Shown in pieces: positions 18,239-48,200 of a DNA stretch of 64,000 nucleotides. The position numbers and the translations under genes were made by a program. The notes under the pieces were generated by a model that had not been told where the DNA came from, made no database searches, and saw only the letters and a program-made list of their open reading frames with translations. The stretch is from Lytechinus pictus (lineage: Eukaryota), in NCBI RefSeq assembly GCF_037042905.1, contig NC_087245.1:1302001-1366000 (forward strand), read 5' to 3'. Every line of letters starts with the position of its first letter. Positions within the stretch are counted from its first letter, which is position 1.

Positions 18239-21200
18239 GTAAGAGTATAATGTTTTATCTATTGGTACATATGATACCAACATTAATCTAGCAGTAATTT
18301 AGTTTGGGCGCCGTGGTCTAATGGTTACGACTCTCGTCTATCAATCTGAGGGACATGGGTTCAATTCCCAACAGCGGCGTGTTGTCCTTCAGCAAGAAAT
18401 TTACACACATTCTGATGCATTCAACCCAGGTTAGGTGAATTTGCCCGCGTTAGTGGATTGTTAAATTGGCATCATAACATAGAAAGTTTATGGATCTAGT
18501 TCATGAAAAATAGACATAAGGGTAATCAAGTATGAGTGATTGTTTGCACACATCTTAGGTCACATGATCATGGTCAAAGGCCATGTTGGGTCAATGGACA
18601 TAATATTTTATTATCATATTAGTGATTTCTTTTGTGAATAATTATTTAATAGCTGTTTTCAAAGGCAGCACTGCTGCTATATCGAATTGCGTAATGCAGG
18701 CAATGCTGCATTAAAAATTTTGATTTTGAGGTGCTGCTGGGTTTGTGCACCTGGCCATGTGCACTGGGCTGTGAGCTGTTCTCTATGCTTAAAATCTGTG
18801 CTAAGAAACTGACTCAAATACTACACAAACAGGAATCCATTTGACCCCAATGGCCTTATTTTCCCCATTCTCCCCTATTGGTTTTGCAAGATAAGCTTGA
18901 TTTTATTGCCTTGATTTCAATTGTTCTGCGTAGATATGAAGGGTTTCTTCATGTTTGGATGATAAAATGTTGATAAATTCTTAAATAAAAAAATAAAAAA
19001 TAAAAATAAAACTTCAAAAAATAAATCATCAATCATTTGTACATGTTTCAATGGAAGTGATTTAAATCAATGATTAAAAAAAAAACCATAGTGATTTAAA
19101 TCGCAATTATTTATCAACATCGGCCAACCCTGTGTTCTATGGAAGTGATCTTGATTTTGATAGCCATTTATAATCTGAGCCTTAAATTTCATCATACTGT
19201 AGTTTTTTTTCATGATTAGCAATTTGCTAACTACACTATTTTAAGTTAGTGAAATGGTGCAAGTTGATAGCTGAGAGCAAACCTTGAATATCATAAAGAG
19301 ATAACTTAAGTGTAGTTGATAGCATGCCATTCGAATCTCAAGGGACTCTCCATTTGGACAGTCATTTCTGACCCAAACCATTTTGTTTGCAAGCAATAGC
19401 ATTGTAAAAACCTTTCTCCTTTTTCATTGTTATTCTTGTTTTTTTTTGTTTTTTTGCTTGTCCCATTTCCAGATTCTTTGACAAAGAGGAAAGAGACTTC
19501 AGTGTTTGTGAGTAGCAGAGAAATCAAACATCTGAATACCATCATTGTCAAAGATGTACCAGATGAGCTAAACAATCGAATTTACATCAACAATTTCTTC
19601 TCCATGTTTGGAAAAGTAAAGAAAGTTCTTGTGAACCCTAGGAAGACAATGGCCACAGTATACTTTGAAGACCATGTGAGTTTATTTTTCAATGATATAA
19701 CCAGATAATTCAAAGAGATTTTATCCTCTTGCTCAGCTGATTTCTTCTTTAAATAACATCATCCGTTGATGCATAACTAAAATTATCTAAGAAGCTCTTA
19801 CACTATTGATGAGGATAAAGAAATGATTGAAGATTAAGGAATTCATTTCATAGTTTTATATATTAATACAATATGTATTGATAATAAAAGTCTTGATATT
19901 TGCGTTCCTTTTCTTGTTGTCTCACCCACCAGAGGTGAAGGCGAGACTAAGGGATCCAAATGTCGTCCGTCGTCCGTCCGTCGTCTGTCCGTCACAAACC
20001 TTATGACACATACATGTAACTCCACAACCGTAAGTTGCTTTTCAACCAAACTTGGATGGTAAATGGACTTGGGGGACCTGCATGTCAGGCTTCAGTCGGA
20101 GGTCACATGGTAAGGTCAAAGGTCATTTTCAGGTCAATGATAAAGTTTACATGCAAGACTCTCTTATGACACCTAACTCTGCAACCGTAAGTCACTTTTC
20201 AACCAAACTTGGATGGTAGATGTACTTAGGCGACCTGCATGTTATGCTGCAGTCGGAGGTCAAATGGTAAGGTCACAGGTCATTTTCAAGTCAACATTAA
20301 AGTTTACGTGCAAGGCTCTTATGACAAGTGTTATTCCATCCCAGTCATTTTACAATGAAGTTTTGATACAATTATGTTGCGTGCTCTCGCAAATCACGAT
20401 ATTTCAGGTTATTTTCATAAGTGGGGAGACACAAAATCGCTTTTGCCTTGTTTTACTTTCTAAATTTTTTTGACTGTGTTTATTTTTTCCAGGAATCAGC
20501 TGCGAAAGCAAAGCGTCGTGTCAAAACATTGAAGGATGGAACCAGACCAGTTGCAATATTTTGGACACAGAAAGATAAAGGCAAAGAAAAGAGAAAGAGT
20601 GGTGAGTTTTGTGATTTTGTTAAATTTTCATGGTCATGATATGACTGCATCAATTTAAAGAAAAATGCCTCTTTAAGAGCATTTTCCTAATGTGTATACC
20701 TACATCTGTTGCTTGCTTTGGCCCATTTTACTAGGTCATATACTTAGGTTAATTTCTCTCTCAAATCTCTAGAAAAAAATGAAAAGAAACTTGAAAGCCA
20801 GTCAAGTAGAAGTTTAATTGATGCACTTCTGAGTGAAGGTATTTATCCAGTTAAAGACATCATTGCTATTTTTGTCAATATTCAATTTTCCTAGATGAAA
20901 ATGTACCTCCGTCAACTATTGAGATAAAGAAAGAGACTGAGCCAGTACAGAAGAGAGAAAAGCCTCCTCCTCCTCATTCATCAGTCATTGGTTAGTATAC
21001 AAATATAAATGATTGGTACAGAATAGGCATGTTCAAACAGTGTACTCAGTTTTTAAATTTTGATGATAACTTGGTTTTAATCCAATGTAAATGCACTCAA
21101 AATCTTAACTACAAGATCCATGGGGATTCCCCACTCATAGTTTGAGAAATGTGGACTTGATATTGACAAATTAAAAAGTTAGTTTCACAGTGCAACCTAG

Positions 21201-24200: not shown

Positions 24201-27200
24201 ATCTTCAACGACAAATATAGGATTTCGTACCTGAAAAAAAAATTGACAAGCAAAAAAGCAAAAAAAAAGGTCTTCAAGCTCGTCAGGGGGGGGGGGGGGG
24301 GCAGGGATATGTCCCTTGCTTGGGTTGTGACCCCCCCCCCCCCCCCCCCCCCCCGTAGGTACGCTAGTGTCTGGCATAGGATGAGACATAATTTTTGACT
24401 GGAGAAGTCAAGAATTCATCTAGTTTTCAAACTGAAAAATATATATTTATTGTTGGGGAAACAATTTGTTGCTTGGTTGCAATGATTGATTTTTCCCTGG
24501 TTGGTAAGATTGTCAAGGAATCTTTTATTTTGGTGATAGACTTTATTGCAATGATTAGTCTGACCCTTAATGTATTTCTGTTTACCCATTTATCTTTCAT
24601 GTACAGATTGAGAAAGGAGAGAATCCTCATGTTTGCCATGAGAGGGCGGTAAAGGAATACAGCAGATCATCTGCAGACCAGGTAAAGTAGAATCATGTAT
24701 AGTATAGTAGTAGTGGAATAACATCTACCAGTTTGTGAGCTTCAAAAAGAATTGTATGCTATTACCCAAGCGTAAGCCTTGCAGCCTTTTACAGCACACA
24801 GGCATTTCAAGGAACTGATAAAGTTTGTGACAGTAATTGTGTACATTCACTAGAAATTACAAATATATGAAATTTTTTACATGTATTATCACTACCGAAA
24901 ACAAAGTGTGCATGTGTTGGAAAAACATGTGTATAGGATGTTTATTTTATTTTATCTGGCGCCGCACAGCGGCTGCCGGGCCAACGATTAATTGGGCAAA
25001 GCAAATTTTCAGAGTATTTAATTTTATGTCTATTTCGAACAATAAAATATGGATTATCATATCATATTATCATATTTTGCAGAAATATACTGTTTGGGGG
25101 CTTTCCAAATAATAAATTTGTGTTTTGAAATGCTAGTATTTTTTATTGGTTAATAAATTCTTAGTAGTAGATAATATTTGTTACTCTAATTGATATATAT
25201 GTAGCTGTAACACAATCTTGATACCTTATTCCCTTGATGAACAGGAAGAGCCATTGCCCTCTGAGCTTCGACCTCCGGCTGTTCTTGACCTTACCATGAA
25301 TTATCTAATGAGGGAGATCATGAATAGAGATCCAAGGAGCTGGGCTGACTGGTTTGATTTCTTATGGAACAGAACAAGGAGTATCCGCAAGGAGATTACA
25401 CAACAGCAGCTGTGTGGGACTACAGCTGTTAGTCTAATGGAGAAATGTGCAAGGTATTAAAAAGAACAGAAGATATCTAATGAAATTGAAAGAGAAATCT
25501 ATGTACCCGTGAATGCTGTGGTTCTTAAGATGTATCAAGATTTCAGGTTCAACGTGTAACTGTTTTTAAACTCTAGTGTATAAAACTAGGAATATTCATA
25601 AATTTTCTTGTAATTTATTCTTGTGAAAACATCATGTTTTATTGTAGCACATAGCTTTCAAAAAGTAGAATGTCATGTGAAATGTTTCTTCATTAGGATC
25701 CCATATCACAACCCATAGGGACTGATCTTAGGATTGACTTTACATGTACATTTATGATCAATGCCATAGTAGAACATTCTTCTATGACCTATTGCTATAA
25801 AGTGTTTTGAATTATAATATCAAAATTTGATTTAAATAAGTACACATTATGCTGTTTGATCTCACAAATTTCACAAGATACGAAGGATTTTTATGATTTG
25901 ACCTCGAGTATTATATGAATCTAATTTCAGGTTTCACATTTACTGCTCATATCGACTGTGTGAAGAAGACCACATGGCCTTTGATCCCAAGATCAACAAC
26001 GAGAACTTGACGAAGTGCCTTCAGAGTTTGAAGCAGTTTTACCATGATCTAGCTGATGAGGGTGTGTTTTGTCCTAACGAAGCAGAGTTCAGAGCTTATG
26101 AAGTCTTGCTGAATCTTACCGGTGGAGATATCTTAAGGTCAGTGTGGAGGGTAACTCTTTCTTTTAAGTCAATTCAAAAGTAAGCAATCTACTCTTTTCA
26201 AAATGCATATTTTCTTACTCCTACACTTCCTTTGAAAGATAATTGATTCCCCTTTCTTTCAAATGGGAAAATAGTTTCCCCAATTGTCAATCAAGGATTT
26301 TTGTTAGTTTTTGTCTCGCCTGCATAGCAGAGCGAGACTATAGGCGCCGCTTTTCCGACGGCGGCGGCGACGGCGGCGGCGGCGTCAACATCAAATCTTA
26401 ACCTAAGGTTAAGTTTTTGAAATGACATCATAACTTAAAAAGTATATGGGCCTAGTTAATGAAACTTGGACATAAGGTTAATCAAGTATTACTGAACATC
26501 CTGCTTGAGTTTTAGGTCACATGACCAAGGTCAAAGGTCATTTAGGGTCAATGAACTTAGCCTATGTTGGGGGAACCAATATTGAAATCTTAACCTAGGG
26601 TTAAGTTTTTCAAATGTCATCATAACTTAGAAAGTGTTTGGACCTAGTTCATGAAACTTACACATAAGGGTAGTGAAGTGTTACTGGATATCCTGCCTGA
26701 GTTTTAGGTCACATGACCAAGGTCAAAGGTCATTTAGGGTCAATGACCTTTGGTCATGTTGGTAGGTATTTGTTGAATTTCCATTGTAACTTTGAATTTT
26801 TATGGAGCTAGTTCATAAAACTTAGACATAAGAGTAATCATGTATCACTGAATATCCCGTGCAAGTTTCAGGTCATATGACCTAGGTCAGAGGTCATTGG
26901 GGTCAATGAACTTTGGTCATGTTGGGGGTATGTGTTTAATTTCCATTGTAACTTTGAATTTTTATGGAGGAAGTTCATGAAACTTAGACATAAGAGTAAT
27001 CAAGTATCGCTGAATATCCTGTGCAAGTTTCATGTCACATGAACAAGGTCAAAGGTCATGTAGGATCAGTGAACTTTGGCTTTGTTTTAGGTATCTACAT
27101 TGAAATCTTAACTATATAGTTTATGAAACTTGGATATACAAGTAATTCAATTATACATGTAGCTGTCATCTGGCATGATTTTCAAGTCGAGTAAAGAGTA

Positions 27201-30200
27201 TGCATTTGTGTGAATTTCTTAACTAATTGTGTACATGTCTGTAAATGTGCATGAAAATGTATGTTCATGTTGTTATGTATCAAGTTATGATCTACATGTA
27301 TTAAAGCCCAAATAATGATGTTTTGTTTGAAATTATCAAGGTTTTGGGTGAAATCATGAAAGTAAATTACACGTGTGATTGATGGTGGACCAACATTTAA
27401 AACTTACATGGTTAACTATAGAAAGTGGGTATATGGTTATTAGATGGATAAAAACTGTGATTGTTTAGCCATTTTGCACTCACAATTAACTCATTATTTT
27501 CAGATAGACATGTAAAGTAGCTGTATGGTTATAGTACATGCTTACATGTAATGCTGTAAAGAGTTTGTGAGTGCAACATGTTACCAGCACCACGAAGAGG
27601 ACGCCAATCACAATATCATATCTTCCACAGCAAGTATTCTACAACAAAGAATTGATTGACATAACCATAAAATATCAAGATTTTTTTCTCTTTCATGGAT
27701 TGTTAGAAAGCCTTGAACATGACCTATGATAGGCATGGATCTAGCTTACCAAACAGTCTTTATGAAATTATTTTTTTGTAATTGATTATGACAAGTTTTT
27801 AAAAAGTAGATTTAGACCTACTTATGACTTTTGTTGCATGTTGTGGATGATATGAATGGTGCCATATGGTTCATAAATGAACCCTTTTTTGTTTAAATTT
27901 TATTGAAAATGACAATATAAAATACATAAACAGTAAACAAATGAAATTATGACAATGATTAGGTGTATGAAAGCCCTAGGGGGCTGGTCAAATATATTGC
28001 TGTACACATGCGTGACCAAAAAAACGTGTGCACTCGTTAAGAGTATCAAAAACTCAGATTTTCAAAAAAAGGGGTAGTTTTTAAAAACTGGTCAATCGCA
28101 GGATGAAACGTATTTTAAAATAGAGTATGTTTTTTTCCAAAGCTTTTTTTTAAGACTAGCTAAACGTGTTTAGGGTAGGTTTTTTTCCCAAGCTTTTTCT
28201 CCGGGGTCGTATTCTGGTGACAACTTGTTTAGGGGCCAAAATGTGTAAATAAAGCCCGCGAAAAACTCGTTTAGGGGGTGTTTGGAAATAATTTGGCCAC
28301 GTGTGTGTACAGCAATACATTTGACTGCCCCCCCCCCCCCCCCCCCCGGTATGTAAGCTTAGTCTAAAATGTGATGCACAAGTAATAAGAACACAAGAGA
28401 AAATTATGCAGATACAGTATGGTCTGGAAATGATTAGTGGTGCTCAGCAGAAGGGAATAGAGGCTGGTACAATTGGTCTGCATGTATCATAAACAGTCTC
28501 TCTCTCTCTCTCTAGAGACCAATACTGTTTTTTTAAACGGTATACATAATTTCAATTCTTGTTTTGAGGTATTAGGGAGTCTAGTTATCTTTTCTCTTTA
28601 ACAGTTTTTTATCGAAACTTCTTTGAGGTACATGCAATTTGTACAAGCTGGTACAATTTGCAAACTTTTGCTTACATCAGGGTTGTACATCTAAACAAGA
28701 GTTGTAGTATTTTGAGTCAGTCTCTAACAATTGACGCTTATCAATCATTATACCATACTACAGGCTGTATTTTCATGCATTTACAAACAGTGTGTAGGGT
28801 TGAATAACGAAGTATACACTGTGCCAAGTGAACATAACTTCTCTACATTTTGATGATCTACCACATGGTAAAGGAAATGCCTCTCTTGTAACTCATATAG
28901 CCTGCATGTATTATGAAATTTGTTGAAATACTTTCAATTATTTCATTGCATAATTCTAGCTCTATCCTTTTATTACCATTGGTTGTATATCTCAGAAAAC
29001 AGTAGACTCTTATCTATATTTTATTCATTCAAGGGGTGAGAGTTTTTTTACTTTTAGGTAGGTGGTATCAGATAATAGTTACAAATCTCATATACTTGTA
29101 ATATATACATGGATACACGTACAAACATAAAATGTCAGAATTTGGATTCTGTAATAATAATAAAAACAGAATGTCAAAACATTTTATCAAAAATATGAAA
29201 ATAGACAGTGTCAGGAAAATAATTTACAGCTTGCTTTTTAATGACATTTAGAAAAATAAGCACGTACATGTATGACTTTCATACAAAGCATTATCCAAGG
29301 TAGAGTTATGATTCACGGTAGATACATAGAATTAAAGCCAAAACAATAGCAGATTTGTAATTTTTAAAATCATGCATTCGGTGTAGTATTTTCAGTCAGT
29401 TTGTAACAATTAATGCTTATCAATCATACCATACTACCTGCATAATGATACATTTACAAACAGTGTGTAGGGTTTAAAGAAAAGGTATACACTGTGACAA
29501 ATATACATAACTTCTCTTCACTTCCATGATCTACCACATGGTAAAGGAAATGCCTCTCTTGTAACTCATATAGCCTGCATGTATTATGAAATTTGTTGAA
29601 ATACTTTCAATTATTTCATTGCATAATTCTAGCTCTATTTATCATTTTACTAACATTGGTACATATCTCAGAAAACAGTAGACTCTTATCTACATTTTAT
29701 TCATTCAAGGGGTGAGATTTTTTTTTTTACTTTTGGGTAGGTGGTATCAGATAATAGTTACAAATCTCAATATACTTGTAATATATACATGGATACACGT
29801 ACAAACATGAAATACCAGAATTTGGATTCTGTAATAATGATAATAAAAAGATAATGTCAAAACATTTTATTTTAAAAATATGAAAATAGACAGTGAAATA
29901 TTTACAGCTTGCTTTTTAATGATATTTATAAAAACAAGCACGTACATGTATGACTTTCATACAAAGCACTATCCAAGGTAGACTTATGATTCATGGTAGA
30001 TACATAGAATTAAAGCCAAAACAATAATAGCTGATTTGTAATTTGTAAAATCATCAGCAATTCAGTGTAGTATTTTCAGTCAGTTTCTAACAATTGACGC
30101 TTATCAATCATTATACCATAATACCTGCATTTTGATACATTTACAAACAGTGTGTAGGGTTTAAAGAAAAGGTAAACACTGTGACAAGTATACATAACTT

Positions 30201-33200
30201 CTCTTCACTTCCATGATCTACCACATGGTAAAGATAATGCCTCTCCTTGATAAATTTCTTTCCAATCAAACAAACATTATTGTACTCTTTGTTTTTCTGT
30301 TATCTGATTTACCAATTATTTCACTCTCACTGTATAAAAGTTTGTACTTAGAAACACTTTGTTTTAAACTAGTCTTCTTTACCATACAAGATTATGTATT
30401 ACTTGAAAGTTGTACACAGGATGAAGGGATAGCTACATATACCATCTTATGGTAACTGTAATGGCTTTCTAATGTCCCACTTGACAGTTTGTTTTCCTCA
30501 ATATTTGTAAATACCAAGTCAATTGTTGTACATCCATTTGTTGTGAATTCACAAATAAGTTGTGTACATTTGAATAACTGTGTCATTGCATTCACAAGCT
30601 TTTGTTTGTTTGGAGTAGAAGTAAGCATATTGATATTGAAATCTCCCATGATAACAAGTGGTTCATTTGGGTTAATATAATTACCCAAGTGTTGTAGTGC
30701 TCTGTGAATTTTTCTCCAATTTTCTTTAGGACGACAATACATAGAAACCACTTGCAACTTAGGACTATGAGAAGGAAGCTGAACTACTGTCATTTCAATT
30801 GACTGGAAATTACATGGAACAACTGTACATTGCAAGCCTTTCCTGTGGTATACAGCACTTCCATAGTGTGTACGTTGTGAGCTAAAGTCATTTCTTGACA
30901 TCTTGAAATTATCCATTTCATACTCATATGCTTTATCCATAGAACACAGTTTTGTTTCAACAAATAAATTGATATCGGATACCTGTAAGTTGAAGTTTTT
31001 TTGTATGTCTTTCATATGAAGGTGCAATGACTGGCAGTTGTGGAAAGCTATTTTGACACAATCTTTTGGATAGTCATACAATGGCTTGTAGCAAAGAGTC
31101 ATTGATTTAGACTGTCTCAAACGTTCCATTTCTGTCATCACATCATCTGAAACTTTGATATGAGCCAGGTTTAGAGGACCAATGATATGCAAATTTTGTA
31201 ATGATGGCACTCTACTGAAAGCAACATAATGAAGATGGACAGCCTTTCTGTCAGGTAATTGGACAACTGCTCTATCTAGAGTGCTTCCTTGAGCTCTGTG
31301 TATTGTTTTAGCACATGCTAATTGGAGGGGGAATTGTTTTCTTGATACTTTCACTGCTTTGTATCTCCCAATTGCAAACTCTCTGGCTATTGGTTTAATT
31401 GGTGTCCAGGACTGATGAATCGCATTGTTGGTATGTTTTGGATATTCATGTCTCAGTTTGAGCCCTGTTTCTTCTGTCTCAAAAAGTACCCATACTATTT
31501 CCACATTCCCACTCTTGTCATATTGGAAATATTTTGAAACACATGCTGCTCCATTAACTAATCCATCTGCTGTGTCTATGTTGACAGTTAGTTCAGCTTT
31601 GAGCTCTAAAGCAAGATTGCATGTTTTAGATAGCCCCATTTCTTTGGCTTTGGCACATGACAAAACTTTTTGCTTGACTTCATCTGTGATATCACCAATA
31701 ACTATGTCATGAGATGCCAAGACAGCTTGGTTTGCTACACTACTGTGTAATTGCTTGTTATGTGCATCAACAGCCTCATTGTGATACAACAAATGAGTGA
31801 CATCAACTGGGTAATTCTCATCTTCTTTAGAGATTATTCTACCTTTTAGTAATTTAATGTCTTCTTTGGTTTGCTTGCCTTCTCTCATTCTGTTCAACAA
31901 TGCTGCATAAGCTACATCTTCTTTTTGTCTCATAATGTCTGTTAATTCAAACAGCTCGAAGTTGTTGGTCCATACATTTGGTGCCAGAACTTCTGTACTT
32001 GATGTAGTAGTTGGATTTTTAAAAATCCAAGTGTCCATTACTGGCTGCAATTGGAAAAGATCGCCAATAGCTATAATACTGACACCTCCAAATGGTTTTG
32101 ATACATTCATTACTTCTTGTAATCGTTGGTTTATGAAGCAAAACATCTTTGTTCCAACCATAGATATTTCGTCGATGAATACAAGCTTCAATTCACCAAG
32201 TTGGGTTCTGAGGGTGTTGCGTTTGTCATGTGATAAAGGTTTATAGCTAAAACCTTGGTTAGCAGGAATGCAAAATGCAGAATGGAGGGTTTGACCCCTG
32301 ATCAAATAGGCTGCTTTACCAGTAGGTGCTGTGAGGAGTACCTTAATTACATCTGGATTACTACCAGATTCTGTGTTATAATGCCTCACAAGTGCCTGGT
32401 ATAGTGACTTGATTACTCTTGTTTTTCCAACTCCTGCACCTCCACTCAAGAAGAGGAGTAACTGTTCATCTGAAGTTTTCACTTTGTTTAGTACATGATT
32501 AAAGAATTCAGATTGCTTTTGATTAAGAGAAGAAACAATTTCCCTGAATTTACTATCAGACAATCTATTTCTGATTCTCTCTTCTTGCATGTCTGTTCCA
32601 GTCGATTGTATACCCAATTCAGAAGCAATATCATAGCTAGTGAAGAGATCTTCACCTTCTATAGCATTTCTATCTTTGCCAAACTTATTTGCATTTATCT
32701 CATTAATATGTTCATTGCAAGGAGCTACATTATGAAGGTTTTCTTCATTTGAGTCATTAAGCAGTTTTTGTTCAGCCATATCTAACTCTTCAGCATACTG
32801 GTTGTACTCTTTCTGTTTTTCTTCTATTACTTGTTTTACCATTTGGTATCTTTCTTCATATGTTTGGCAGTTTCCAATGATTTCACTCTCACTGATGTAA
32901 GGGTAAAAGAGCATCAAATTTTCTCTGTAGTAATTTTCTGGATCTTTTTCTTTGTCATATCTCACATAGCGTATCACTTTTTGCTTTTTCCTTCGTTTCA
33001 TAATCACTGTGTTTGAGATTTTCAATTCACCAAGACATGTTTGTTTATTTTGATATAGATCAGAGTCATCAGGTTCATCTTCTTTGTTATCATCACTGTC
33101 TGTTTCAGGCAGTTCTAATTCATGCACTTTTCTCTTCTTCTTGAACTGTACTTTTTTCATATCATACCATGCAATGAAATCTGCTAAGCACATGTCCCGG

Positions 33201-36200
33201 GCCTTCCTTGGCCGTTCTGAGTATCTCTTGATGTTATTGCTGCACTGAATGTCTTCACAATCAGCAGGCAAAGCATCAAGTTGCTCTGAAGGTTTGAGTA
33301 TAAAAGGTCTCTGATCTGGAGGTGAAGTGTTAACAAATGCATGCCCACATGATGAATGCTTTAGTGGCATTTGTAGAGAGAGATATATTGCTTCAGGTGC
33401 ACTAATCTCAACATGTTTAAGAAATTTGTTTCCAATCAAACGAACTTGATCTTTGATATCAGTTGATCCTTTTCTAGCTTCATCACATGTTCGTCTCAAG
33501 AGTTCACTCATGCCTCTTTGGCCTTTAGAAACATAGTTCACAACATACATTGCACAAGCATAAGCATTGGTAATGAATTGTATGTCTGTATTTGCTTGCC
33601 ATGCCTGGAGTACAGCAGGGTTATACGCATTCACACGTACATTGCATGGTTCTCGTTTGAGAAACACCTTTGAAGCTGAAATAGAACTTCTGATTGCAAG
33701 CTCATAATCATCAGGTGAAATGCCAAAATGGTCAAGAAACAGTTGAAGAGTAAGTTGCTGGATTTCAGGTTTGTTTAGTTCAATTTGTATTTCTTTCCAT
33801 TTCTGTTTATGTAACTGCTTTTCTTTGTCTTCCATTTCAACTGGCAGAGGTTGTAAGATCTTTGTAGACTCCATAGGAGGCAATGGGAAATTGAACCTGC
33901 ACACTTTACCCTTTTTTCGACAAGTATGTGTGTGTCTGTGACATTGCAGTTTTTTCAAGTTCTCATTTACACCCAAACTTTGTCCGTCTGTTTCAATGAT
34001 GTTGTCAATGTAATTTTCAATGTCTGAATTTGAATCTATCTCAAATTTAGGGGCCCCATTCACCCACAGAAGACTGTGCAGATGGGCTGATCCTCTATGT
34101 TGGAACTCTATCCTGTAGAAATGTTCTGAAATTTTCCCAAGTGGCTCACATGAACCTTGAAGGAAATTTTGATAGAATTTTTTCACTCTGTGATCAAAAT
34201 ATCTTGTGACAGTGACAGGATCTGATCGAATAAGTCTATTTTTTGTTTCCCAAGTGAAACTTGAAACATCTTCCGCACTATACTGTTTGTTGTCAACAAG
34301 TTTACCCAAAGATATTAAGAGATCAGTCCAATGTGACTCAGCAGAAGACAAAGAAATAAACCATGTTGGTAATCCTAACTGTCTAATCATTGCAAACAAA
34401 TCCTTTTTGGCTGTTTCCCAGTATGGTGGAGATCCTCTTAAAGTTCTGAAAATTCTATATCCTTCATCTAATTTGACCATGGAGTCAACAACATCTTGTT
34501 GTTTGACATCTCCTGCAGTATATGACTTGCCTGATGTTTTAACCCGCCTGAGTGAAAGCCATATCTTATCTTTGATCTGTTTCATTTGGAGTTTCTTGCA
34601 TTTGAAAAAGATGTTTGTTACAGATTTTGCTGCTCTTCGATCAGAATGTCGTAATTCTAATTTGCAGATATCACTGTACTTGAGAGGTATTTCTCTATCT
34701 TTGTTACTTGGCCTTCGTTCCCCACAAAATATAGTTGGAAATGATAATTCCTCAATATCAGCCTGTAATGAACTAATTGGTATATTTCCCTCACTGGGTG
34801 CAAAAGAGAGAATGTTTTGTTGATCATCAACATTTTGTGGATACAACATAGTGTCCAAACTTCCAACAGGTTCTTTTTCATCAATTTCACTCCAATCAGA
34901 GTCACTATCTTTTTCTTTCTCCTCGGTTTGGGAAGCAGAAACATTAACTGCAGTAGGTACTATGTTATCTTCACAAGTGCTCTCTTCGAGAAACTCTTTC
35001 CATTGAGTTTTATGCATTTCTGCAACATGAGTTGGCCAAAATTCATCTAAACCGTCTGTAACATATTGTTTAAACAGAGGTTGTTTCACTAAGTATTTTG
35101 TTGCTTCAAAACACTTCTGTGGTCTGATGTTTTCAAACATGTAATGACTTTTGTACCGAAGACGTTTCTTTAGTTTTACAGGGATGGTATGTGAATCATT
35201 GATAGAGCGAGGCAGTGAATTTACAATTGAAATATTGTTGGCAGGAACATTAACAACATTCCCACGGATTCCAACTTGTCCACCACTTGGCAACTCACGA
35301 AGTTGGAAAAATGTATTTACTGGGGAAACCAGCCTCTCTTCAAGTGGGTTTAGTTGTAGCTCTGTTGGACAATGAGGAAATCCAGTTCTATTAGCTGAAG
35401 AAAGTGGGGGGAGTTTATTCTTTAGCATCCAACTCTGACAAGTGTGGCAAATCCATTCTTTGCCTTCAACACTTAATGTTCCAGTGATGCACTTTGAGTG
35501 AAGAGATTTATCAGTATTCCTAACAACAAATACATCATTAACAGACTGTTTAAACCATAGCTGCTTGCAGCATGTGCATATATACTCACATGCTACTGAT
35601 ACTGCTTCTTTAAAGTGCTCCACAAGTTCATCAATTGTATTGGAGGGAAATCTGTTGCTTTGTTTACGTAAAGCGTCATCTTTAGATTCTTTCTCTCTGT
35701 ATGCTGGATTGCTTCTCCTTTGTTTGTTGATGTTTCTCTCAAATTCTTGGAATGACGGAGCTCTTCTTCTCTTTCTATTGTTTCTTTTTTCAATTTCTTT
35801 ATATTCCGGATCTTGTCGTCTTCTCTTCTTGAGGTTACTCTCAAACTCTTGGAAGGATAGATCTTTTCTTCTTCTTTTGTTTTCTCTTTGTTCATTTTCT
35901 TTGTATTCCGGATCTTGTCGTCTTCTCTTATTGAGGTTACTCTCAAACTCCTGGAAGGACGGATCTCTTCTTCTTGTTTTGTTTTTTCTTTGTTCATTAT
36001 CTTTGTATTCCGGATCTTGTCTTCTACTCTTCTTGAGGTTACTCTCAAACTCTTGGAAGGATGGATCCTTTCTTCTTCTTTTGTTTTTTCTTTGTTCATT
36101 TTCTTTGTATTCCGGATCTTGTCGTCTTCTCTTCTTGAGGTTACTCTCAAACTCTTGGAAGGATAGATCTTTTCTTCTTCTTTTGTTTTTTCTTTGTTCA

Positions 36201-39200
36201 TTTTCTTTGTATTCCGGATCTTGTCGTCTTCTCTTATTGAGGTTACTCTCAAACTCTTGGAAGGATAGATCTTTTCTTCTTCTTTTGTTTTCTCTTTGTT
36301 CATTTTCTCTGTATTCCGGATCTTGTCGTCTTCTCTTATTGAGGTTACTCTCAAACTCTTGGAAGGATGGAGCTTTTCTTCTTCTTTTGTTTTTTCTTTG
36401 TTCATTTTCTTTGTATTCCGGATCTTGTCGTCTTCTCTTCTTGAGGTTACTCTCAAACTCTTGGAAGGTTAGATCTTTTCTTCTTCTTTTGTTTTTTCTT
36501 TGTTCATTTTCTTTGTATTCTGGATCTTGTCGTCTTCTCTTATTGAGGTTACTCTCAAACTCTTGGAATGACTGATCTCTTCTTCTCTTTCTATTGTTTC
36601 TTTTTTCATTTTCTTTGTATTCTGGATCTTGTCTTCTACTCTTTTTGAGGTTTTTCTCAAATTCTTTGAAGGACAAATCTCTTCTCCTCTTTCTGTTTGC
36701 ACTTTGTTCACTTTCCTTATATTGTGGGTCTCTTCTTTTCTCCTTTCTGAGTGTCCTTTCTAATTTTGTATAGGAAGAATTCTGTCTTTGCTTACGCTTG
36801 TATTCCATCATATAGGTCTTTCTTAGGTTTTGAGACAAGTGTGTATTAGCAACATTTTGTCCAATTGACCTTGATAGCTCTTGAAAGTTTGCTTGAGAAA
36901 CAAAGTATGAACTGAGAGTGTCTAATCTTTCAGTTGGGAATGGTATAACTTTGCCTTGCTGTAAGCACAATTTGAGATGTTGTCTGATTTGTGAATTGTC
37001 AAATCTTTGAGTTTGTGGTGGCACATTGAACAGACAGCTAAATGCAGCAGCTATTGCAAAAGCTCCACAAGCTGGTTCAGTTTGTTGGGTTATTGGAATG
37101 TACTCTATATGCACAGCTGTTCCATACAATAGATTGATTTGAGGCATTAAATGCTTAATTCTGTCCTGTGAAGACAATGAATCATACACAGATACTCGAT
37201 TGGTGGAAGGGTCATATGAGGATGTGACCCAATGGTTATCAACATGATGGAAGTTGATACAATGTTTATCTCTAGGAATATCAATAGAAACTCCTTTAGA
37301 AAGAAGAACTTTCATGGCTGCAGGTGTCACTTGTCCAATGTATTGATCTAGTTGTGGACTATGATTTTTCATAATTGATACAGCTTGTTGTATGACATCA
37401 TCAGGGATGTATGCTGCGTATTCATCCACTGAACTCATAGATTCTTTATTTAGATTCGACAAGGATAAGTGTTTTTTGTGAGTATTATTATTACTGATTG
37501 CAGTCAGTTCTTCTTTCCGTTGCTGAGTATTCACACTGCCAATATTACTCTGACCATGAGCACTTGATAAAATGCTATGACTCGGGGTTTTATCATTCTT
37601 GTTCACAGTGGTAGTGCATTTGTGACTTTTGAACTTTTGATAAGTACTAAACCTTAGGTTGCAAGCATGACAGTATGAGCATTTATGCTGAAGAAGTCTT
37701 TTCTGGGTTGAAAAGCTTTTACAGCAGTTAGTACATTTACAACTTCTTAATTCGTCACAGAGATCTTGATCATTAGAAGGTACTTGTTTAATGCACTTAT
37801 GTAAGCTTATTTTTTGCTTGGAAGGAAAAACATTTCCACATTGTTGACATAAACAACATTTGTGTAGTTTCATCTTTTGCTTGGTGGAGAAATCTTGCCC
37901 ACATTGTTTACACAAAGTGCATGTATGACTTCTGAAAGCTTTCAAATACTTGTAAGTTTGAGTGCATTCATTGCATGTGAATATGTTGCCATTGTATATA
38001 TGGCTCCCTCTATTTCCTACAAGAAAATGATCTTCGTGGAATCTTTGTGTCAGTGAGGAAATAATACAAGTGACATTGTTAAAAGAAATATAACAGAACG
38101 CGAACAGCGTCAGGGTAAACATGTAAACAAAATAAGACATCCTTATATATAGTCAAGGTTATAATTGAGTATCAGGAGAATCTAGTTGAGATTACAAATG
38201 AGAAACCTCTGGAAAGTGACTTTGTTCATTTCTCCTTTACAGATGCCTTTCAGTAGTATCCATATACCGCAAGCAAAGTACTGTCGAGTGTAAGATTCTT
38301 TCTGTTTCAGTCAGTGCATTGAAGTGTTGCCCACGCAAAAAAAACTTGGAATACTTTGTATCCTGCAGTCTGAGGTAAAAAAAAGAAAATCATTGACTTT
38401 TAACACTGTACAATGTGTCTGTTCATACAAGGCCAAGGCTAAATATCTACTTTTGAGAGATTTTGAGTAGGTGTAATTCTATACTGATTAGCAATGAATT
38501 GATAAGTAATTCTGTTAAATGCCATTAATTATGATTATCCTCATTAACATCATCTCCATCTTTTTAATCAATTATTTCTTGAGTATTTATGATATAAATT
38601 GATATTATTGGGGTTATCATTCTTTTTTATCACCATTATTACATTATTCATGTATTATTAATTTGTTTGTGTATGAAATGATAATAATTGCTTTTTATTT
38701 AAATAAGCGGTAATTTTAAAACGAAATTCAATCTTTGTCATAAAATGATGTGTCAAAGTGAAAGAAAATAAGAAAAGAGAATAGTGAAAGTTTAGCTTAT
38801 TTTTGGCCGTAATAATAAAATTCATCAAATGTGATTGAAACTGTCTTTTTGTTACCGTCACTGCATTTTTAAACTAAATGTAATTATACTGACAAAGATT
38901 TTGTTAATGATATAAATTTGTTCAATCCTTGGCCCAATAACTTTTGAACATTTTGTATCCTGCAATTGAGAATAGAAGACTGTTCATACTGAAACACTAT
39001 AATGCCTTTATATACACCAAATGGTTATTTGCAGTTTGCATAAAGATATAGACAAATCCTGATGCTTTTGAAGTATATTGTATTTCTAAGAAAAGAATAA
39101 AGTACCAAAATAATGCAAAGTTTGATGTATTCAAATTTCTTACCAAATTGATTTGATTCTACAGAAAATTTTCCCCTTTATTTTGCACATTACACATGTT

Positions 39201-42200
39201 TTTTTGTGTCTAATGTTGAGATTTGATGTAATCTTTATGTAAATGCAAAATCTATTTAGCTTAAAGTTTTGAGTACTCTTGATCTCATTGATAAGTACAT
39301 ACATGTATTTAGTCATGTGCTCGTACATCAGATCAATGTACTCGAATTCACAGTTGAATACCTACATGTAATTGTAATTAAACTCTCGTTTTTCATCTTA
39401 TTTTGACATACTTTTGCAAATTGAATTCCATCTAATTTTATCTTATGATACTAAATAATGAAGGTATAGTATAATTCATTATCATTTTAATAACACACTG
39501 AAGTTTAGATTAAAACCTTCATTCATTTAGTAGCTTTCTCAATTATAATTTTAAACTGGAAAAGTGTTTACCATATGATTAGTGATGAAAAGATTTTTCA
39601 AACTTGAATTTGCTTCAAATCAACCTCATCAAACAGATCACCTGTAATTCAAAATACAGAAGAAAAAAATTTGTCAAAATTAGAATACTCATTCACTGTC
39701 AATTCAAATGATTGTTTGCTTTTTGCATACAGATTATAAAAATTAAGACCTAGTATTCTATAATAGAAATACATATTGTTTTAATTTCCAGTTTAAATAT
39801 GCAATCTAACTATCTAGGTTTGTTTTATTAGTATTTCAATTTTCAAAACAGTTAATGTTCACTATTGGAAAAAATGATATAATAAATCACACATTCAAAA
39901 TTTTTATAGAAAATTAATACAAAAATGTCATAGACAACCATTTTCATTTCTTTCATTTATATTACAAAGCAAAATTGAATATAGTTTATACACTATTTTG
40001 CCTAACAAATTCCATATTGTATTATTGCCAATAATAAATTAAATTCAATTCTTTACCCAAAATCAAAATTTGACAAACTTATCAAATAAATAAAAGAATA
40101 ATTTTGAAATAAATTGAATTCTGTATATAAATGCATTGAATGACTTTCTTTCATGAGATACCAAAAATATATCACCTACAAAGCCAGCTTATTATAGCAC
40201 CAAGTCAAGTATATTAGATAATTTTTGATATCTCATTATAAAAGCATCCAATATGGTTAGAACTACTGTATATATTTTCTGTTTAATCCTATCATTATGT
40301 GTATGCAAAATATCCATGCTTTCTTGAGTGCATCATACAGTCCTTAAGACTCTGCATAAAATCATACTATATAAAGAGAAAATGAATTGTACTGGAAGTA
40401 CATGTAACACATAATTGGTAGACAAGAATAAAGAAAATAGATGGAAGATATTATTTGATAGAAAGAATGAAGCTGTATACAGTAACATCCAGAACTGTTC
40501 ACCTTCTCTTTTTAGAGTATGATTTCAATGCAATGTCTACACATGTATGATTCTTTGAGCACCCATTATCTAGAATGCAAGATAATTTGCTTTTCCTAAA
40601 TCCTATATTTAAGTATATTGTTAGTTTCCCTTTCCTAGTGCCGTTCTATAGGGAGTATAAGCGACTTATTTACTGTTGAGGCTTTCCTCGATCGCACCAC
40701 CATACTCCAATACTAGGCACCGTGTTTCTTTATTTCAATTGTGTATGACCGAAATTCTGTATTCATACGCCCTATTAGGACTGTTGGACTTCAGCCACTG
40801 GCTTCGGCACGTACTAGCCCAGAATTTTTCTAACAGGTCATATTCACAAGGGTACACTTAATACATCAATTTAAAATAAATCCAAACCTAATGTAGTAAA
40901 GAGAGCAATCAAATTCTGGATTAAATTTCCAACTTATAGAATTGTTTTTAAATCTCAAAAATTTTGAAATTTAAAATTAAATCTATAAGTGTCAAAATAA
41001 ATCCAGTATTTAACTGTTTCTAACTACAGTCAGTTTGGATTAATTTCAAATCCATGCAATGTAGTGTGTCTACTAACAATTCTTCAAGATGAAAATAATC
41101 TATTGAAGAATGAAGATAATCTATTGAAGAACGAAGATAATCTATTGAAGAATGAAGATAATCTATTGAAGAACGAAGAATACATGTAACTTCTGCTACT
41201 ATTGGCGTCAATGAAATATCTGTCAAATTTCACTCCTATTTATACATTTTACAGAGACCCTCTGCACCAAGTTTTCATCCAATCAAATTGTCTTCCTACA
41301 AACAACCAATCACCTTTAAAGACAAAAAAAAGAACCAATCAAAATCAAGATCCAAATGTTCATTAAGCTCATTTGAATATGCAAAATTTATTCATGGCCA
41401 CTCCTCAGGTGTTTATCTCGAATTAGCAGCTGTTTTTAACTGAAAAACAACTTTTACAATGAACAAACAAGAAATGTACATTCAAACAAACAACATTTCT
41501 AATGTATTACATTTTTAGGTCAGTGCACTTGTACTTTCATGACCACAACATTCCCAAAGGTCAGCTAACCCAAACTTTAACATAATCTATACAAAACAGG
41601 ACCCTAACCTCACACTTTCAACCAATCACTGTTCTTGAGATTTGCCTATAATGCAAATAAGGATCCTAAGCACACTTGTGTCAACCAATCACTAAACATA
41701 TATATCATCCAATCCCTTCACAGCAAAGTCCACCAATTGCATTGCTTATCTATTCTGCACTGACTAATTGGAAATGACACTAAATAATAAAGATAACTAT
41801 TTGCATATAATTTGTATATTATGCAAATAATGATTTAGTTTTATGCCAACCTAGAAGGAATCTTCAAAACAGATTCCTTCTAGGTCTGCATACAATTCAA
41901 CTTTTTCATGCCTTTACCCACCATACATTTATGTGACCCTATTCTCATTAAAATCCTAAAACTAGTTTAGTCCAAACTACTGTAATAAAGGTGCACTAAT
42001 GTGAATTAGCAATCTTCCAAACCAATTTCAAATGCACCATCCCAAGAAGCCAATTGATTTTGAGGTCAAATTAATAGATTTAAATTTTTTTTTGGTGTGT
42101 CGATAGATGACACCAAAATACACGCCAAGTTTAGAGTCCGCAGGTCAAAGGTCAGACCTCATTAAATATGCGAGATGGTTTCCGCATGATAATTTATAAA

Positions 42201-45200
42201 ATACCCAACAGATTTAAAAAGTTTGTGGTATGCAGGTTGATCAAACCAAAATACAGGCTTAACTTCAAATTCAGAGTCCGCAGGTCAAAGGTCACAGCTC
42301 ATTAAATATGCAAGTTGGTTTCTGCATAACTTATGAAATATTCAAGAGATAGAAAAAAAAATTGGTGTGTAAATAGATGACACCAAAATACAGGCTTAAG
42401 TTTTAATTCGGAGTCCGCAGGTCCAAGGTCGCAGCTCGTAAAACTTGCAAGTTGGTTTCCGCATGATCACTTCTGAAATATTCAACAGATTTAAAAAGTT
42501 TTTTAGGGGGAAGGTTGATGACCCCAAAATACAGGCTAAGTTTGAATTCAGAGTCCGCAGGTCAAAGGTCACAGCTCATTATATATCCAAGTTAACTTTC
42601 GAAATATTCACCAGATTTAAAAAATGTTTAGTGTCTCAATAGATGACATCAAATGACCTGACTTTCATATCTTCTATTAGAGATTATTATACAAAGGGCG
42701 AGCGAGTCTTTAGGTCAAAGATCTAAATTTCTTCATTATACAGTGCGTATCAAAAAAAAGTTTACACTTAGAAAATTATACATTTGTCATATCCTGAAGA
42801 TTTTTCCACATTTTAACATTTGTACAGATCCATTTAAGCAAATGACTATATAACTGTCAAAAAACATTTCCACTTGAGTGAGCACCACTTACTTTTCAAA
42901 AGTTAGTCAATAATGATTCGCACAGAACTTTCAAATAGTTATGCGAATAAAAGTAGACCTTTAATAATCATGAATAACACGTCGAATTTAGCTAGTAAAA
43001 TTGATTGTAAGATATATTTTACCTTTTGTATTTTGTTTCCTTTCCCAAACTACTTCAAGGTGTGCATTGCACCCCACCCCACCCCACACACCGAGGCCAT
43101 TGTGACAATATTTGCTTTACACTTAGCTGTGATTTACATAAAATGGCTTAGGCTTGATTTTCATTTTGTCAATCATTGTCAAGCTTGGGAAAAATGTGGA
43201 GAAACATGTATTTAATAAAAAATGAAATGTAAACCCACTATAAATGATAAAAACTTAGTGAAAAAATACTACAGATATCTGGTATAAACTTTTGTTCAGA
43301 TTCACTTATGTCCTCAGATCCAGCTGACACAAAAAGAGTAAAGGTTGTGTTAATTAAGTGTTAAAATTTCAATTTGAGTGGTAAAATGGTTAGAAAATGC
43401 TTGAATGTATCCGATTTATTTCAATTGACTTAAAGTGCAAGGAAAATGTAGGAGAAATGTTTCGCAGGGTAAGTTTGATTTCGCCCTTTCCCCTTGACAC
43501 AGCGTACAAACAAGCATTTCTGTGCAAACAGATTTCTGCGAGCTTTACAAATCGGACAGTGCTCACTCAAGTGTAACATTCTGTCAAAACTTTTACTTTC
43601 ATTGGATAGATGAGACCCAAACCCATGATTATATGTCAAAAAATTACCCACATGGTGTATATTTTTTAATTCCCAGGGCGTTTTCAAAGTGTAAACTTTT
43701 TTTGATACGCACTGTATATATGCATATTGGTTTCTACATGATTTTAAGTTCAATCATATTGAATGAATTTGTGATTACATTATTCAATACCCGTTTTCAA
43801 ACTCAGCACTGCTGCTTGCTCTGATCGCGCAATGCAGGCGAGACAGCCAGAGGCGTTCCACTTGTTAAACATGCTAAACCTGTCAAGATTAAAGGGAACA
43901 ACCTACATGTAAGACCATTGATAGTACCTTTGCTCAACTTTCTATACTAACTGTCATAAAAAAATGACTTTAGTGCAAGTCTCATTCGGTTTTCTAGTGC
44001 GAGGTGCCATTGAATGAAAGGTATGATTGATGATAGGTAAGAGTTCAGCAAGACATTTGAAATTATATTCTTGTCATGTTTTGTTTTTCTTTGTTTTCAG
44101 AGAGGTCCAGCAGTATCGACCTGAAGTAAGAAACTCTGAGGCTGTGGTTTTTGCTATCAAGGTCTCTGCAGCTTTCAGTAGTAATAACTATTGCAGATTC
44201 TTCAAACTTATCAGGTAATCTCATTTAGCATTTCTTCAATTTTGCTACAAATCTGGGAGAAAGAATGAATAAATATGGATGATGTATGTAAACAATGTAT
44301 GAATGCCTTGAGTGTCCATTTTAATGCGAGTAATTGGAAAGGTATTTCAAGAGGTTGTTAGGTAGCCTACTATATTTGCTATGATCACAGACAACTGTGG
44401 CAGTGGTTTCTTATTCTTTACAACCCATTCTCATAATCTTATCTTGCCTTCCTATTTGTGTACAGGGTGGCTTCATTCTTAAATGCATGCATCCTTCATC
44501 GCTACTTTGTCCAGCTTCGATGTCTGGCATTAGAGACAATGAACAAAGCCTTCACCACACCCAAGGGTACCTCAATGTTTCCTACCGCTGAACTCGTCCA
44601 TCTTCTGGCCTTTGAAGATGATGAACAGGTGAGGTGTTCTTGTTCCTACACCATTTTCTGTCACAGATGGATACATTACTTGTAATACTTAATCTGATGA
44701 ATATTGTGATATAATAACAAAGATGTGAGGATTAATTTTTAAAACCTTGGCATGGTCATAGGTAAATCTGCCTTGTTTTCTTCTTATGCCAATAAGGTGT
44801 GTTAAGTGCAGAAATACTAATTTGTTACGGGTGTAAATTCATTGGTAGTAGGCCCAGTAATGCTCCATTGCATTAGCTACTGGTGGACCGGAGAAGTCAT
44901 TGCCAAAAAAAATTAAGCTGCATGCTTGATAATCTCTGTTGCTGGCTTAGTAGCAGGTACACTCAGATCATGAAAAAAAAGCAGTAAGAACACTTCCTAT
45001 TGAACGGAATGTGTATACATTTTTAAAGAGCTTAGAAATCCAGTAATTGAGTTTTTCTTATTTTTGTTATAGTGAATAGTGAAATGGATTTTAAGAAACG
45101 TCTACAAGAACTACTATTATTACGTTTTATAGGCTTCAAATTTCTGTGAGTGTCATGGTTTGGGTAATGCAGATGGTTGCATCCAACTTAGCAGAGGTGG

Positions 45201-48200
45201 GTTCATCTACCCGGAGGAGGCCATCACATCACAAAGAGCGCCCTCTGTAATTGAAGCTAAGAATGATCAATCAGTTGGAGAGGTAAAATAAAGTAGTTTA
45301 AAATTTCCTTGTATTTATTATTAGGCCTAATGGCCCATATTTTGAATTCTGGTTAAATAAGGCCACGTTCTATGCCTGTAATAAAAACTCTTTTTGTTTG
45401 AATTATATGGATCTAATGTTTCCTCATTCTTTAGTGGTGATGAAAATGTTTTTTATTCCTAGACAGCTATTATTTATTTGAGTGCCAAACATTTTAATAA
45501 ACTGAACCTCTAGTGTCAAAGATTTGTTAAACCATATGTTAAGGCCAAAGCTTAAATCGAATTGGAGTTAAGAATACGAGCCTAAATATATCTTTTTCAT
45601 GGTATTCATGAACATGCTTTTTTTTGTATCCCTTGACATGTTTTACTTTGTATGTTTTACTTGTCTAAATGAATACAATACAAATACAAAAATGCTTCCT
45701 TTATTCATTTGATCCAAATACCCAAACTATGTTACTGTAGAATTAAGAACATTGACTTGCAGGTCTAGCTTTCTTCAATGTTATTGGTATTTATGTATAT
45801 GTGGATTGTTTGATATATCCCATAGGTAGTAAACAATGGCCCTCTTCCTTTAGCTCCACCACATACTCCTATATCAAGCTTTGATGTGAATGGAAGACTT
45901 CTAGACAGAGGTGTGGAAGATAAAACCGGTCAAGGTACGGATAGTTTGACAAAAAGAAGGGTTCTTAAAATTGGATGAATAATCTTGATTTGTGTTATAT
46001 CTGAATTAATTGTGCTATTCATTTATCCAGTTGTCTATATTTAGCTCATTTTATTGTCTCACCTGCATAGCAGAGTGAGACTATAGGCGCCGCTTTTCCG
46101 ACGGCGACGGCGACGGCGGCGGCGACGGCGGCGTCAACACCAAATCTTAACCTGAGGTTAAGTTTTTGAAATGACAGCATAACTTAGAAAGTATATGGAC
46201 CTAGTTCATGAAACTTGGCCATAAGGTTAATCAAGTATTACTAAACATCCTGCCTGAGTTTCATGTCACATGACCAAGGTCAAAGGTCATTTAGGGTCAA
46301 TGAACTTAGACCATGTTGGGGGAATCAACATCAGAATCTTAACCTAAGGTTAAGTTTTTGAAATGTCATCATAACTTAGAAAATATATGGACCTAGTTCA
46401 TGAAACTTATACATAAGATTAATCAAGTATCACTGAACATCCTGCATGAGTTTCACGTCACATGACCGGGGTCAAAGGTCATTTAGGGTCAATGAACTTT
46501 GGCCGAATTGGGGGTATCTGTTGAATTACCATCATAACTTTGAAAGTTTATGGATCTGATTCATGAAACTTGGACATAATAGTAATCAAGTATTACTGAA
46601 CATCCTGTGCAAGTTTAGGGTCACATGATCAAGGTCAAAGGTCATTTAGGGTCAATGAACTTTGGCCAAATTGGGGTATTTGTTGAATTACAGCCATAAA
46701 TTTGAAAGTGTGTTGGTCTAGTTCATAAAACTTGGACATAATAGTAATCAAGTATCACTGAACATCCTGTGCGAGTTTCAGGTCACATGATCAAGGTCAA
46801 AGAACTTTGGCCACGTTGGGGGTATTTGTTGAATTGCCATCATATCTCTATAGGTGTATTGGTCTAGTTCATAAAACGTGGAAATAAGAGTAACCAAGTA
46901 TCACTGAACATCTTGTGCGAGTTATAGTAGTTTTCAAAATCAGCACTGCTGCTATATTGAATCGCGTGATGCAGGTGAGACGGCCAGAGGCATTCCACTT
47001 GTTGATATTTATAAGTCCCTTTTCCACAGTGTGTGTTTGTCAATCATATTCTTATAACCAAGTCAAGGATTTAAAATTTACTCTTGGAGCTTTGTTTTCC
47101 TATCCCGTAACAACTGATATTGGTGTTGTGTGACTTTGATATGAAATTAATCAATTTGAAAATGTTCTGATTTTTGTTCGTTTGCATTTTAATGTTAATT
47201 TTTCTGTTTTTTTTGTTTTACTCTGCAATTGAATATGTAAACAACCAACAGAACAGTAATCTAAAGTACAGTAGTTTCTTTTAAACTTCACTATAGAACA
47301 GATTATTATTTTTGCCCAACTCATAGTGAAGATGAATCACCAATTTTGACTATTTCCCCAAATGAACGTCAACAAAATTTTAGATATCAAAAGAAAAGTC
47401 ATGCACACCCTGTTTAGGTAGAATAATTCTTAAGTAAATAAGGCTCAATTTCAATCTTTATCATCCACTTTCAAAGTTTTAAAGAAGGGATTTTATTTTT
47501 TCAAACTTCCATTTTTTTTTCAGAAATGGCACAACCAGAAAGGAAGATTGAGAAAGCAACCCTACAGGAACACCTGCCAATCCAACAAGTGATCCAGTTC
47601 CAGGAACCACAAACACGGGAGGTTATTCCAGAAGTTACTCAATATCCACAACAGGCTGTTTTACAAGCTAGGGTGGAGGAAACTAAACCCATTATAAACC
47701 AAGAGGTAGGTTGGCTTTGAGTATAAGGTTATAAGTGCAAACAACTTAGTAATTAATCTTGTGCAATACAATGAAAGGGAGAATGAGGAAATTGATTGTG
47801 TACATGTATGTTTGAAGAAATAAGGTACACTAAAAGCAATTCTATGTAGTCAGATATTGGATGAGGATACTTGTTCATTCATGTTGTACTTGTAATGATG
47901 TGTAGAATTTCAATATAATGAGGCAAATGACCTTGGCATTGTCCATGGTTGGGGAAAAATTCATAACAACATATCCATTGCCCCAAATGAGAGAGAGAGA
48001 GAGAGAGAGTGATTGATTAAAATACATAATTTTGTAGCTAGGCAATAAGAAATGTCTCCTTTATATTTTTAACTCAGTCTTACATTTGTTTCTTTCCCAC
48101 CATTTAGGTTGTTAAAGACATCACCAAAGAGCTCTTTTTAGATGTCATTGATGAGATGATAAGAGACCTATCTATAAAGTTTATGGATACCCTAGCTCTC

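Follow-up and report, generated by a model that had tools for sequence, protein, structure and literature searches.

The question raised by the stretch of Lytechinus pictus DNA analysed here (64,000 nucleotides, positions 1,302,001 to 1,366,000 of contig NC_087245.1; hereafter the window) is what fills nearly all of one intron of a gene that is likely MCM3AP, and whether this insert is the active master of its family, as an initial annotation had proposed. We conclude, with a probability of about 0.7, that it is a recent and coding-intact Helentron of the HLE2 type, with an endonuclease and a reversed open reading frame (ORF), and that it is one of five copies and was likely shortened by deletion from a giant progenitor, rather than being a master. 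The window Helentron is confirmed and for the most part ordinary; a new variant is plausible for the giant lineage from which it likely descends.

A Helentron in a host intron

The element occupies positions 26312-43865 (17,554 bp), its terminal signals being read on the plus strand and its ORF on the minus strand. The left subterminal inverted repeat (subTIR), TGTCTCGCCTGCAT at 26312-26325, has an exact reverse complement at 43832-43845, a perfect 14-bp pair whose chance expectation, given the 14-mer within the window, is roughly 8e-5. The same 14-mer also opens a short relative at 54922, and the pairing therefore needed proof from outside the window. Both ends recur in identical form at four other loci with unrelated flanks, and T flanks are found at all five full copies. 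The repetition of the structure at four independent loci also rules out an assembly artefact for the window copy. Paralogous empty sites of one of these sisters, located on C2, define the net insert as T+GTCTC...CTTGT placed between T and T with zero duplication. For this reason the length falls one base below the range first annotated (26312..43866): the left end and the boundaries hold, and the right end moves to 43865, with one T assignable to either end.

At the left end, a T-run is followed by GTCTCGCCTGCAT, and the subTIR is folded, with an internal inverted repeat, into a 5' hairpin (26312-26338, plus strand). Folding of 26313-26338 gives -11.4 kcal/mol (z -3.15, with 1 of 200 shuffles equally good), and the hairpin arms co-vary in a short relative at 46055 (G-C to A-T, in both arms). 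The right subTIR is located 20 bases inward of the right end and is followed by a 3-bp GCC-AGA-GGC stem and a conserved tail (43832-43865, plus strand). On the ORF strand, the tail and stem (43846-43865) lie upstream of the ORF and before the first inverted repeat, which is the HLE2-reverse layout. Across the genome, the first 39 bases have 1,206 exact matches and a degenerate 33-base right-end pattern has 3,104 (0 for the control); a 64-base right-end pattern, allowing up to 2 mismatches, matches at the five full-copy loci only. Canonical Helitrons (HLE1) have a 5' TC, a 3' hairpin plus CTRR and an A/T target, and lack inverted repeats. Assignment to that group is ruled out by the ends TGTCTC and CTTGT, the T/T target and the presence of subTIRs.

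The coding part is an unbroken frame at 30392-38152 (minus strand) of 2,586 codons, counted from stop to stop. It combines C2H2 fingers, an Ulp1-like protease, 34-residue basic repeats, DUF6570, Rep, a Pif1 helicase and a C-terminal apurinic/apyrimidinic (AP) endonuclease within a single ORF. The Rep domain, of the HUH type with two tyrosines, lies at 33524-34648 (Helitron_like_N, E 2e-23; HLH and YxxxY motifs intact), the Pif1-type helicase at 31208-32527 (PIF1, E 5e-27; Walker A, Walker B and later motifs intact), and the endonuclease at 30428-31060 (Exo_endo_phos_2, E 3e-7; N, E, Y, GDFN, D and H motifs present). DUF6570, which is described as a marker of HLE2 (PMC11417382), lies at 35072-35422 (E 4e-13). 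These four family matches exceed the family cut-offs, alignment with 11 homologues bears out the Rep, helicase and endonuclease motifs, and the core of the ORF is matched by 839 proteins; a domain-family scan gave no RPA or OTU match in the ORF. In the endonuclease, SYH replaces SDH, as it does in four of the ten aligned homologues that reach the domain; a disabling mutation is ruled out here, since close homologues carry SYH too. A 102-bp coding tandem array (35727-36723; 9.8 units of 34 residues each) varies in length from copy to copy and stays in frame. Upstream of the ORF, polypyrimidine-AG motifs seen by eye at 38200-39660 (minus strand) are suggestive of small 5' exons; spliced reads were not observed there, and a contig runs unspliced across an acceptor-like motif near 38020.

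The protease-like domain (36890-37420, minus strand) lies in the transposase frame and keeps His, Asp, Gln and Cys in at least 90% of 32 aligned relatives. Its profile matches an Ulp1-like protease and the solved SENP1 structure (E 5e-7 to 1e-6), whereas a search of the PDB with the single domain sequence gave no match; against Pfam C48 the score stays below the cut-off (E 0.025). The structure model has a predicted local distance difference test (pLDDT) score of 91.6. With a His-Asp-Cys triad and a Gln before the Cys, the domain is predicted to be a protease of the Ulp1/SENP (C48) type.

The exons flanking the insert match SAC3_GANP (E 4e-28, 1e-23 and 7e-11) and join in frame; together with upstream low-complexity and RRM-like exons, this domain makes MCM3AP the likely host gene. 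The upstream Sac3/GANP exon (25931-26137, plus strand) and the downstream one (44101-44214, plus strand) enclose a GT..AG intron of 17,963 bp (26138-44100), whose junction is fixed by a 1,044-nt RNA contig, found with identical length and depth on both the exon that ends at 26137 and the one that begins at 44101. The host exons are thus spliced directly together in that sample, which may come from an individual without the insert. The Helentron fills 97.7% of the intron and lies 174 and 235 bp from the splice sites, leaving 409 bp, compared with 477, 251 and 504 bp in neighbouring introns. The initial annotation had described a Helentron with perfect 14-bp subTIRs in a T-run without a target-site duplication, an unbroken 7.7-kb Rep-helicase-endonuclease ORF antisense to the host, and an insertion between Sac3-domain exons that takes up about 98% of the intron and leaves a remainder like its neighbours; ends, target, domains, strands and intron lengths all agree with it. 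The annotation's further expectation, an insert-free junction, is probably borne out. In a related organism, whose intron is 91-93% alike, contigs from both DNA runs match as far as 26312 and then carry on with 349 and 428 letters that are not those of the element, so that absence of the insert from this locus is probable, not proven. The insert is likely tolerated as an intron, and the location itself is unremarkable: RNA shows normal joining of the exons, and the gene region holds three short relatives as well. The relatives are at 18458-18701, 46055-47003 and 54922-56353, the last of which contains a nested insertion of roughly 400 bp. A short high-copy repeat at 24954-25060, in the previous intron, is also skipped in both DNA runs of the related organism.

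Five recent copies and a giant sister

DNA searches of the same genome revealed four further full copies, at C4:25201241-25218844, C5:37661641-37681117, C5:39181030-39199687 and C2:41971104-42044657 (hereafter the C2 sister). All five full copies of the ORF keep the same termini, and they differ pairwise by 0.24-0.47%, mostly through private changes (15,096 gap-free columns, which exclude the tandem arrays). The annotation's reading of the insertion as young is supported, and copies of the ORF with other termini, by which the annotation would have been refuted, were not encountered. The ORF is intact in two of the five, the window copy and the C2 sister; it is frameshifted in the C4 copy, and the two C5 copies carry 1,820- and 1,088-bp insertions. 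Synonymous changes account for 22 of 46 ORF substitutions, compared with 20.5% of possible changes (p 3e-5; p 0.008 with 30% assumed). Transition bias makes this excess less strong without abolishing it; the pattern points towards selection for a functional transposase in the lineage's recent history.

That the window copy is the active master of its family is suggested by its unbroken frame and intact catalytic motifs, three sisters being broken by the frameshift or by the 1.1- and 1.8-kb insertions. Moreover, three of its six private ORF changes are synonymous, and its private 49-bp deletion (43778-43779, between ATTA repeats) takes the end of a nested element and spares its own terminus, by which we rejected the deletion as damage to that terminus. 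However, a master role is highly improbable. The 49-bp deletion and 15 private substitutions are missing from all four sisters, and the C2 sister is also ORF-intact and keeps the ancestral state at 8 sites. The window copy also has three private amino-acid changes, two of them at conserved positions: S1632C, where all 11 homologues have Ser, and F1385I, where 10 of 11 have an aromatic residue or His. Over 36800-45600, neither an ORF-strand read nor a transcript of the window copy was seen in about 6% of three raw RNA runs, a thin coverage that does not show silence: two runs had no depth in the unique interior, one had a depth near 1 on the host-exon strand, and RNA-type contigs carry four alleles private to the copy at C5:37.66 Mb. 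The window copy may be competent, but it is one of five near-identical recent copies and not the template of the others.

The size of the C2 sister, 73.5 kb with an intact ORF, gives a different view of the 17.5-kb form. It matches the window Helentron on both sides of position 39853 and holds 54.6 kb in between. No internal termini were found in this interior, which contains same-strand, colinear copies of the transposase region and the DNA upstream of it; these duplicates have decayed and differ from the intact element by 3.7-15.9% (substitutions). Older duplicates cross both sides of the joint, eight on the left and one on the right, and the long continuity is therefore ancestral and the joint common to the four short copies (39853-39854) a derived deletion. 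When the relics are used as outgroup, 8 shared derived sites unite the four short copies against the C2 sister and 10 sites are private to the latter; by these sites the four form a clade. Junction probes against older fragments at C12:1.68 Mb, C2:34.9 Mb and C3:22.5 Mb gave no match and were no help in polarising the deletion.

Dating of the insertion bears on whether the giant form was mobile. The C2 sister interrupts a 1.57-kb repeat that differs from its paralogues by 2.7-4.2%, and all nine paralogues fetched have the empty site. As the host repeat is 2.7% from its nearest paralogue, those relics that are 11-16% diverged predate the insertion, and they were likely carried in with it. After subtraction of three recent 5.0-kb units and a few young nested elements, we estimate a size at insertion of about 50-58 kb. 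The C2 sister was thus probably more than 50 kb long when it transposed, and deletion from the giant form probably gave rise to the four short copies.

It could instead be argued that the 17.5-kb form is the normal element and that the C2 copy, once inserted, was enlarged on the spot as local stretches duplicated and older fragments were taken up. The short form is present in four of five copies, the 5.0-kb units are nearly identical, so that part of the growth is recent and local, and for several pieces of the interior there are 96-98% matches to mobile elements at other loci. Yet a copy 0.45% from its sisters cannot, by in-place duplication, yield units 5.5-15.9% diverged, and outside C2 no locus has such units above 84%. 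The relics are, in addition, colinear, on the same strand and without termini, and older continuity is seen at both sides of the joint. We regard growth in place as unlikely and favour a giant form shortened by deletion. Also present in the C2 interior are tandem arrays of 82 bp and 224 bp and, at element position 44485-44985, a coiled-coil-like frame of 167 codons.

Short relatives, nested elements and other families

Among 20 sampled left-end matches, 18 are complete elements of 0.5-1.4 kb, and the left 0.8 kb plus the right 0.1 kb of the window Helentron make up most of such a short family member. The window family is likely the mobiliser of thousands of these roughly 1-kb non-autonomous copies with the same ends.

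Several observations weigh against our account of a giant progenitor, a derived short form and its non-autonomous partners. A single giant copy of the family was found, and its mobility at full size rests on dating, with no second locus. The three 5.0-kb C2 units compared differ by 2-11 of 5,000 bases, which may reflect recent local amplification or an assembly error. Near the joint, the short copies are closer to the second C2 unit (98%) than to the first (94%), and the C2 element is therefore a sister of the progenitor and not the progenitor itself. The right-end stem is weak, with 3 conserved bp and non-significant folding (z 0.73 and 0.37 on the two strands), and the empty site at the window locus is seen only as an alignment stop in the related organism. 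Finally, the non-autonomous copies are 80-89% similar to the left 0.8 kb, though mostly 94-98% to each other, and none has the exact right 64 bases, so that the partner link holds at family level; the Rep search scored 48 candidates and possibly missed other partners.

Helitron transposition is described as a rolling-circle process via a circular intermediate (PMC6431247, PMC5148889). From what is known of the family, Rep would nick one terminus, the helicase would peel off a single strand, and the copied strand would be joined between two T bases, the direction being set by the termini and not by the ORF. We propose that, within the element, tandem duplication of the transposase region took place repeatedly in this lineage while older units decayed, and that a long form of more than 50 kb transposed into the C2 site. 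One deletion would have given the 17.5-kb form, followed by at least four insertions including the window copy, and the transposase of the lineage likely also spread the non-autonomous elements of 0.5-1.4 kb, thousands in number, that have these ends. An Ulp1-like domain would be expected to remove SUMO- or ubiquitin-like tags, and it is tempting to speculate that it counters host silencing. A broader proposal is tentative, and we hold it at somewhat less than even odds: that this genome hosts giant Helentrons transposing as units of at least 50 kb, beyond catalogued sizes and default annotation windows, and that one lineage among them renews a fossil series of its transposase by tandem duplication and has shed a streamlined autonomous 17.5-kb form that spreads, drives thousands of short elements and carries a SUMO-protease-like fusion countering silencing. 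If giant forms are true, rolling-circle transposition can reach sizes above the catalogued limit, and wrong ends are being assigned to autonomous HLE2 elements in annotation. The five young copies, the matching non-autonomous family and the proven ends together offer a usable substrate for testing HLE2 ends and endonuclease; a literature search gave no HLE2 assay papers by title or abstract.

Within the window copy, a CGG-type microsatellite and 192/162-bp tandem repeats (26356-27079, plus strand) are common to the non-autonomous family. They are followed by a nested element with inverted repeats, resembling a miniature inverted-repeat transposable element (MITE; 27979-28333, 42-nt arms), which has many genomic matches at 79-87%, and, downstream of the ORF, by a repeat of about 680 bp in 2.3 units (28703-30245). 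A nested non-autonomous element of another family (41840-43778, plus strand; left limit approximate and read from the sequence) contains 140-bp repeats at 42073-42650; a dispersed relative has the same repeats, MITE and end. In the window copy, the far end of the nested element was lost to the 49-bp deletion. A 982-bp, TA-flanked MITE with 39-bp inverted ends (42737-43718) is about 89-90% similar to many genomic copies, and we take it to be of the Tc1/mariner type. Both MITE-like elements are in all five copies. The initial annotation mentions neither these two, nor the nested non-autonomous element, nor the 49-bp deletion. The motif GGTCAAAGGTCA, which to us resembles a nuclear-receptor direct repeat, is present in three unrelated tandem-repeat types (26393-27079, 42073-42650 and 20017-20326), the last a 157-bp tandem element of another family.

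The 45 Rep-search matches include 23 loci of other families whose open Rep frames exceed 2,000 codons, ranging over 2,190-3,525 codons. At five fetched loci of other intact families the termini are different, of the AGGTGGTCTGTC type, and the ORF is reversed too. A second intact family is found on three chromosomes (C16:20011698-20062158, C9:1244262-about 1299900 and C13:19198001-19238000; 98-99.9% alike), with ORFs above 3,200 codons. It measures 50.5 kb head to tail on C16, where there are head-to-tail junctions with short relatives, and about 55.6 kb on C9, for which no far terminus was identified, aligns colinearly with this copy at 98-99.9%. Clusters of intact second-family copies at C10:41322-400587 (near a contig end) and C12:7852215-8277037 (interior) are possible tandem arrays. 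A third intact family, at C14:10007071-10025594 and C11:16663952-16682104, has frames of 3,451-3,525 codons and related AGGTGGTCTGTC ends, its far terminus not being found; the C14 locus has several stacked end copies, as if self-inserted. The ORF is reversed in all three families examined, although one of them yielded only its end downstream of the ORF.

These families bear on a composite origin, in which the transposase unit of another Helentron would have inserted backwards into a non-autonomous shell and then moved with it as one (as in Fig. 8 of PMC5148889). The reversed ORF, and the fact that the outer 0.8 and 0.1 kb nearly suffice to build a short family member, fit such an origin. Inner termini in opposite direction were, however, not found, reversal is the rule in this genome, being seen in both other intact families examined, and internal deletion explains the short members equally well. 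We consider a composite very unlikely; as a model of ancient origin, it is compatible with a recent Helentron derived by deletion.

Comparison with known systems

The window element resembles Helentrons of HLE2 subgroup b, as portrayed in PMC4067079 and PMC11417382, in its asymmetric subTIRs (at 14 bp, within the 12-15 bp typical of the group), 5' inverted repeat, microsatellite and central tandem repeats, in its T/T target without duplication, in its Rep-helicase-endonuclease ORF with DUF6570, and in a family where non-autonomous copies far outnumber autonomous ones. It differs in its 3' stem of only 3 bp, in having no RPA or OTU match in the ORF, and in the position of its subTIR, nearer to the end than in mite elements, for which PMC4067079 gives 38-60 bp. 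Its transposase frame also includes an Ulp1-like protease, whereas OTU or Herpes_teg_N is found in many of the listed homologues; PMC11417382 counts Peptidase_C48 among Helitron domains but does not name it with those sharing the RepHel frame.

A reversed ORF is already known in Helentrons (PMC4067079, PMC5148889, PMC11417382). Helentron-Da-40 of Drosophila ananassae and FoHeli4/5 of Fusarium ('HLE2-reverse') likewise carry the ORF against the terminal signals. Such elements are the minority according to PMC4067079, in contrast to three of three families examined in this genome. The 0.5-1.4 kb relatives have the layout of DINE-1 and share both ends with the window element; DINE-1 and HINE elements are non-autonomous, and the window element is the coding counterpart of these relatives.

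With respect to size, maize Helitrons reach 39 kb (PMC6431247), and PMC11417382 puts the Repbase maximum at 39,893 nt, although supplements may list longer ones; the default scan of the tool in that paper is 10 kb per side. Rare huge insertions inflated by nested elements have been described (PMC12001565), and large size alone is therefore not new. As in large Helitrons, the C2 sister gained its size through non-essential cargo. It measures 73.5 kb, however, and much of its cargo is made up of decayed copies of its own transposase region rather than of captured host genes, and the second family reaches 50-56 kb at no fewer than two loci, compared with the 39 kb of large Helitrons.

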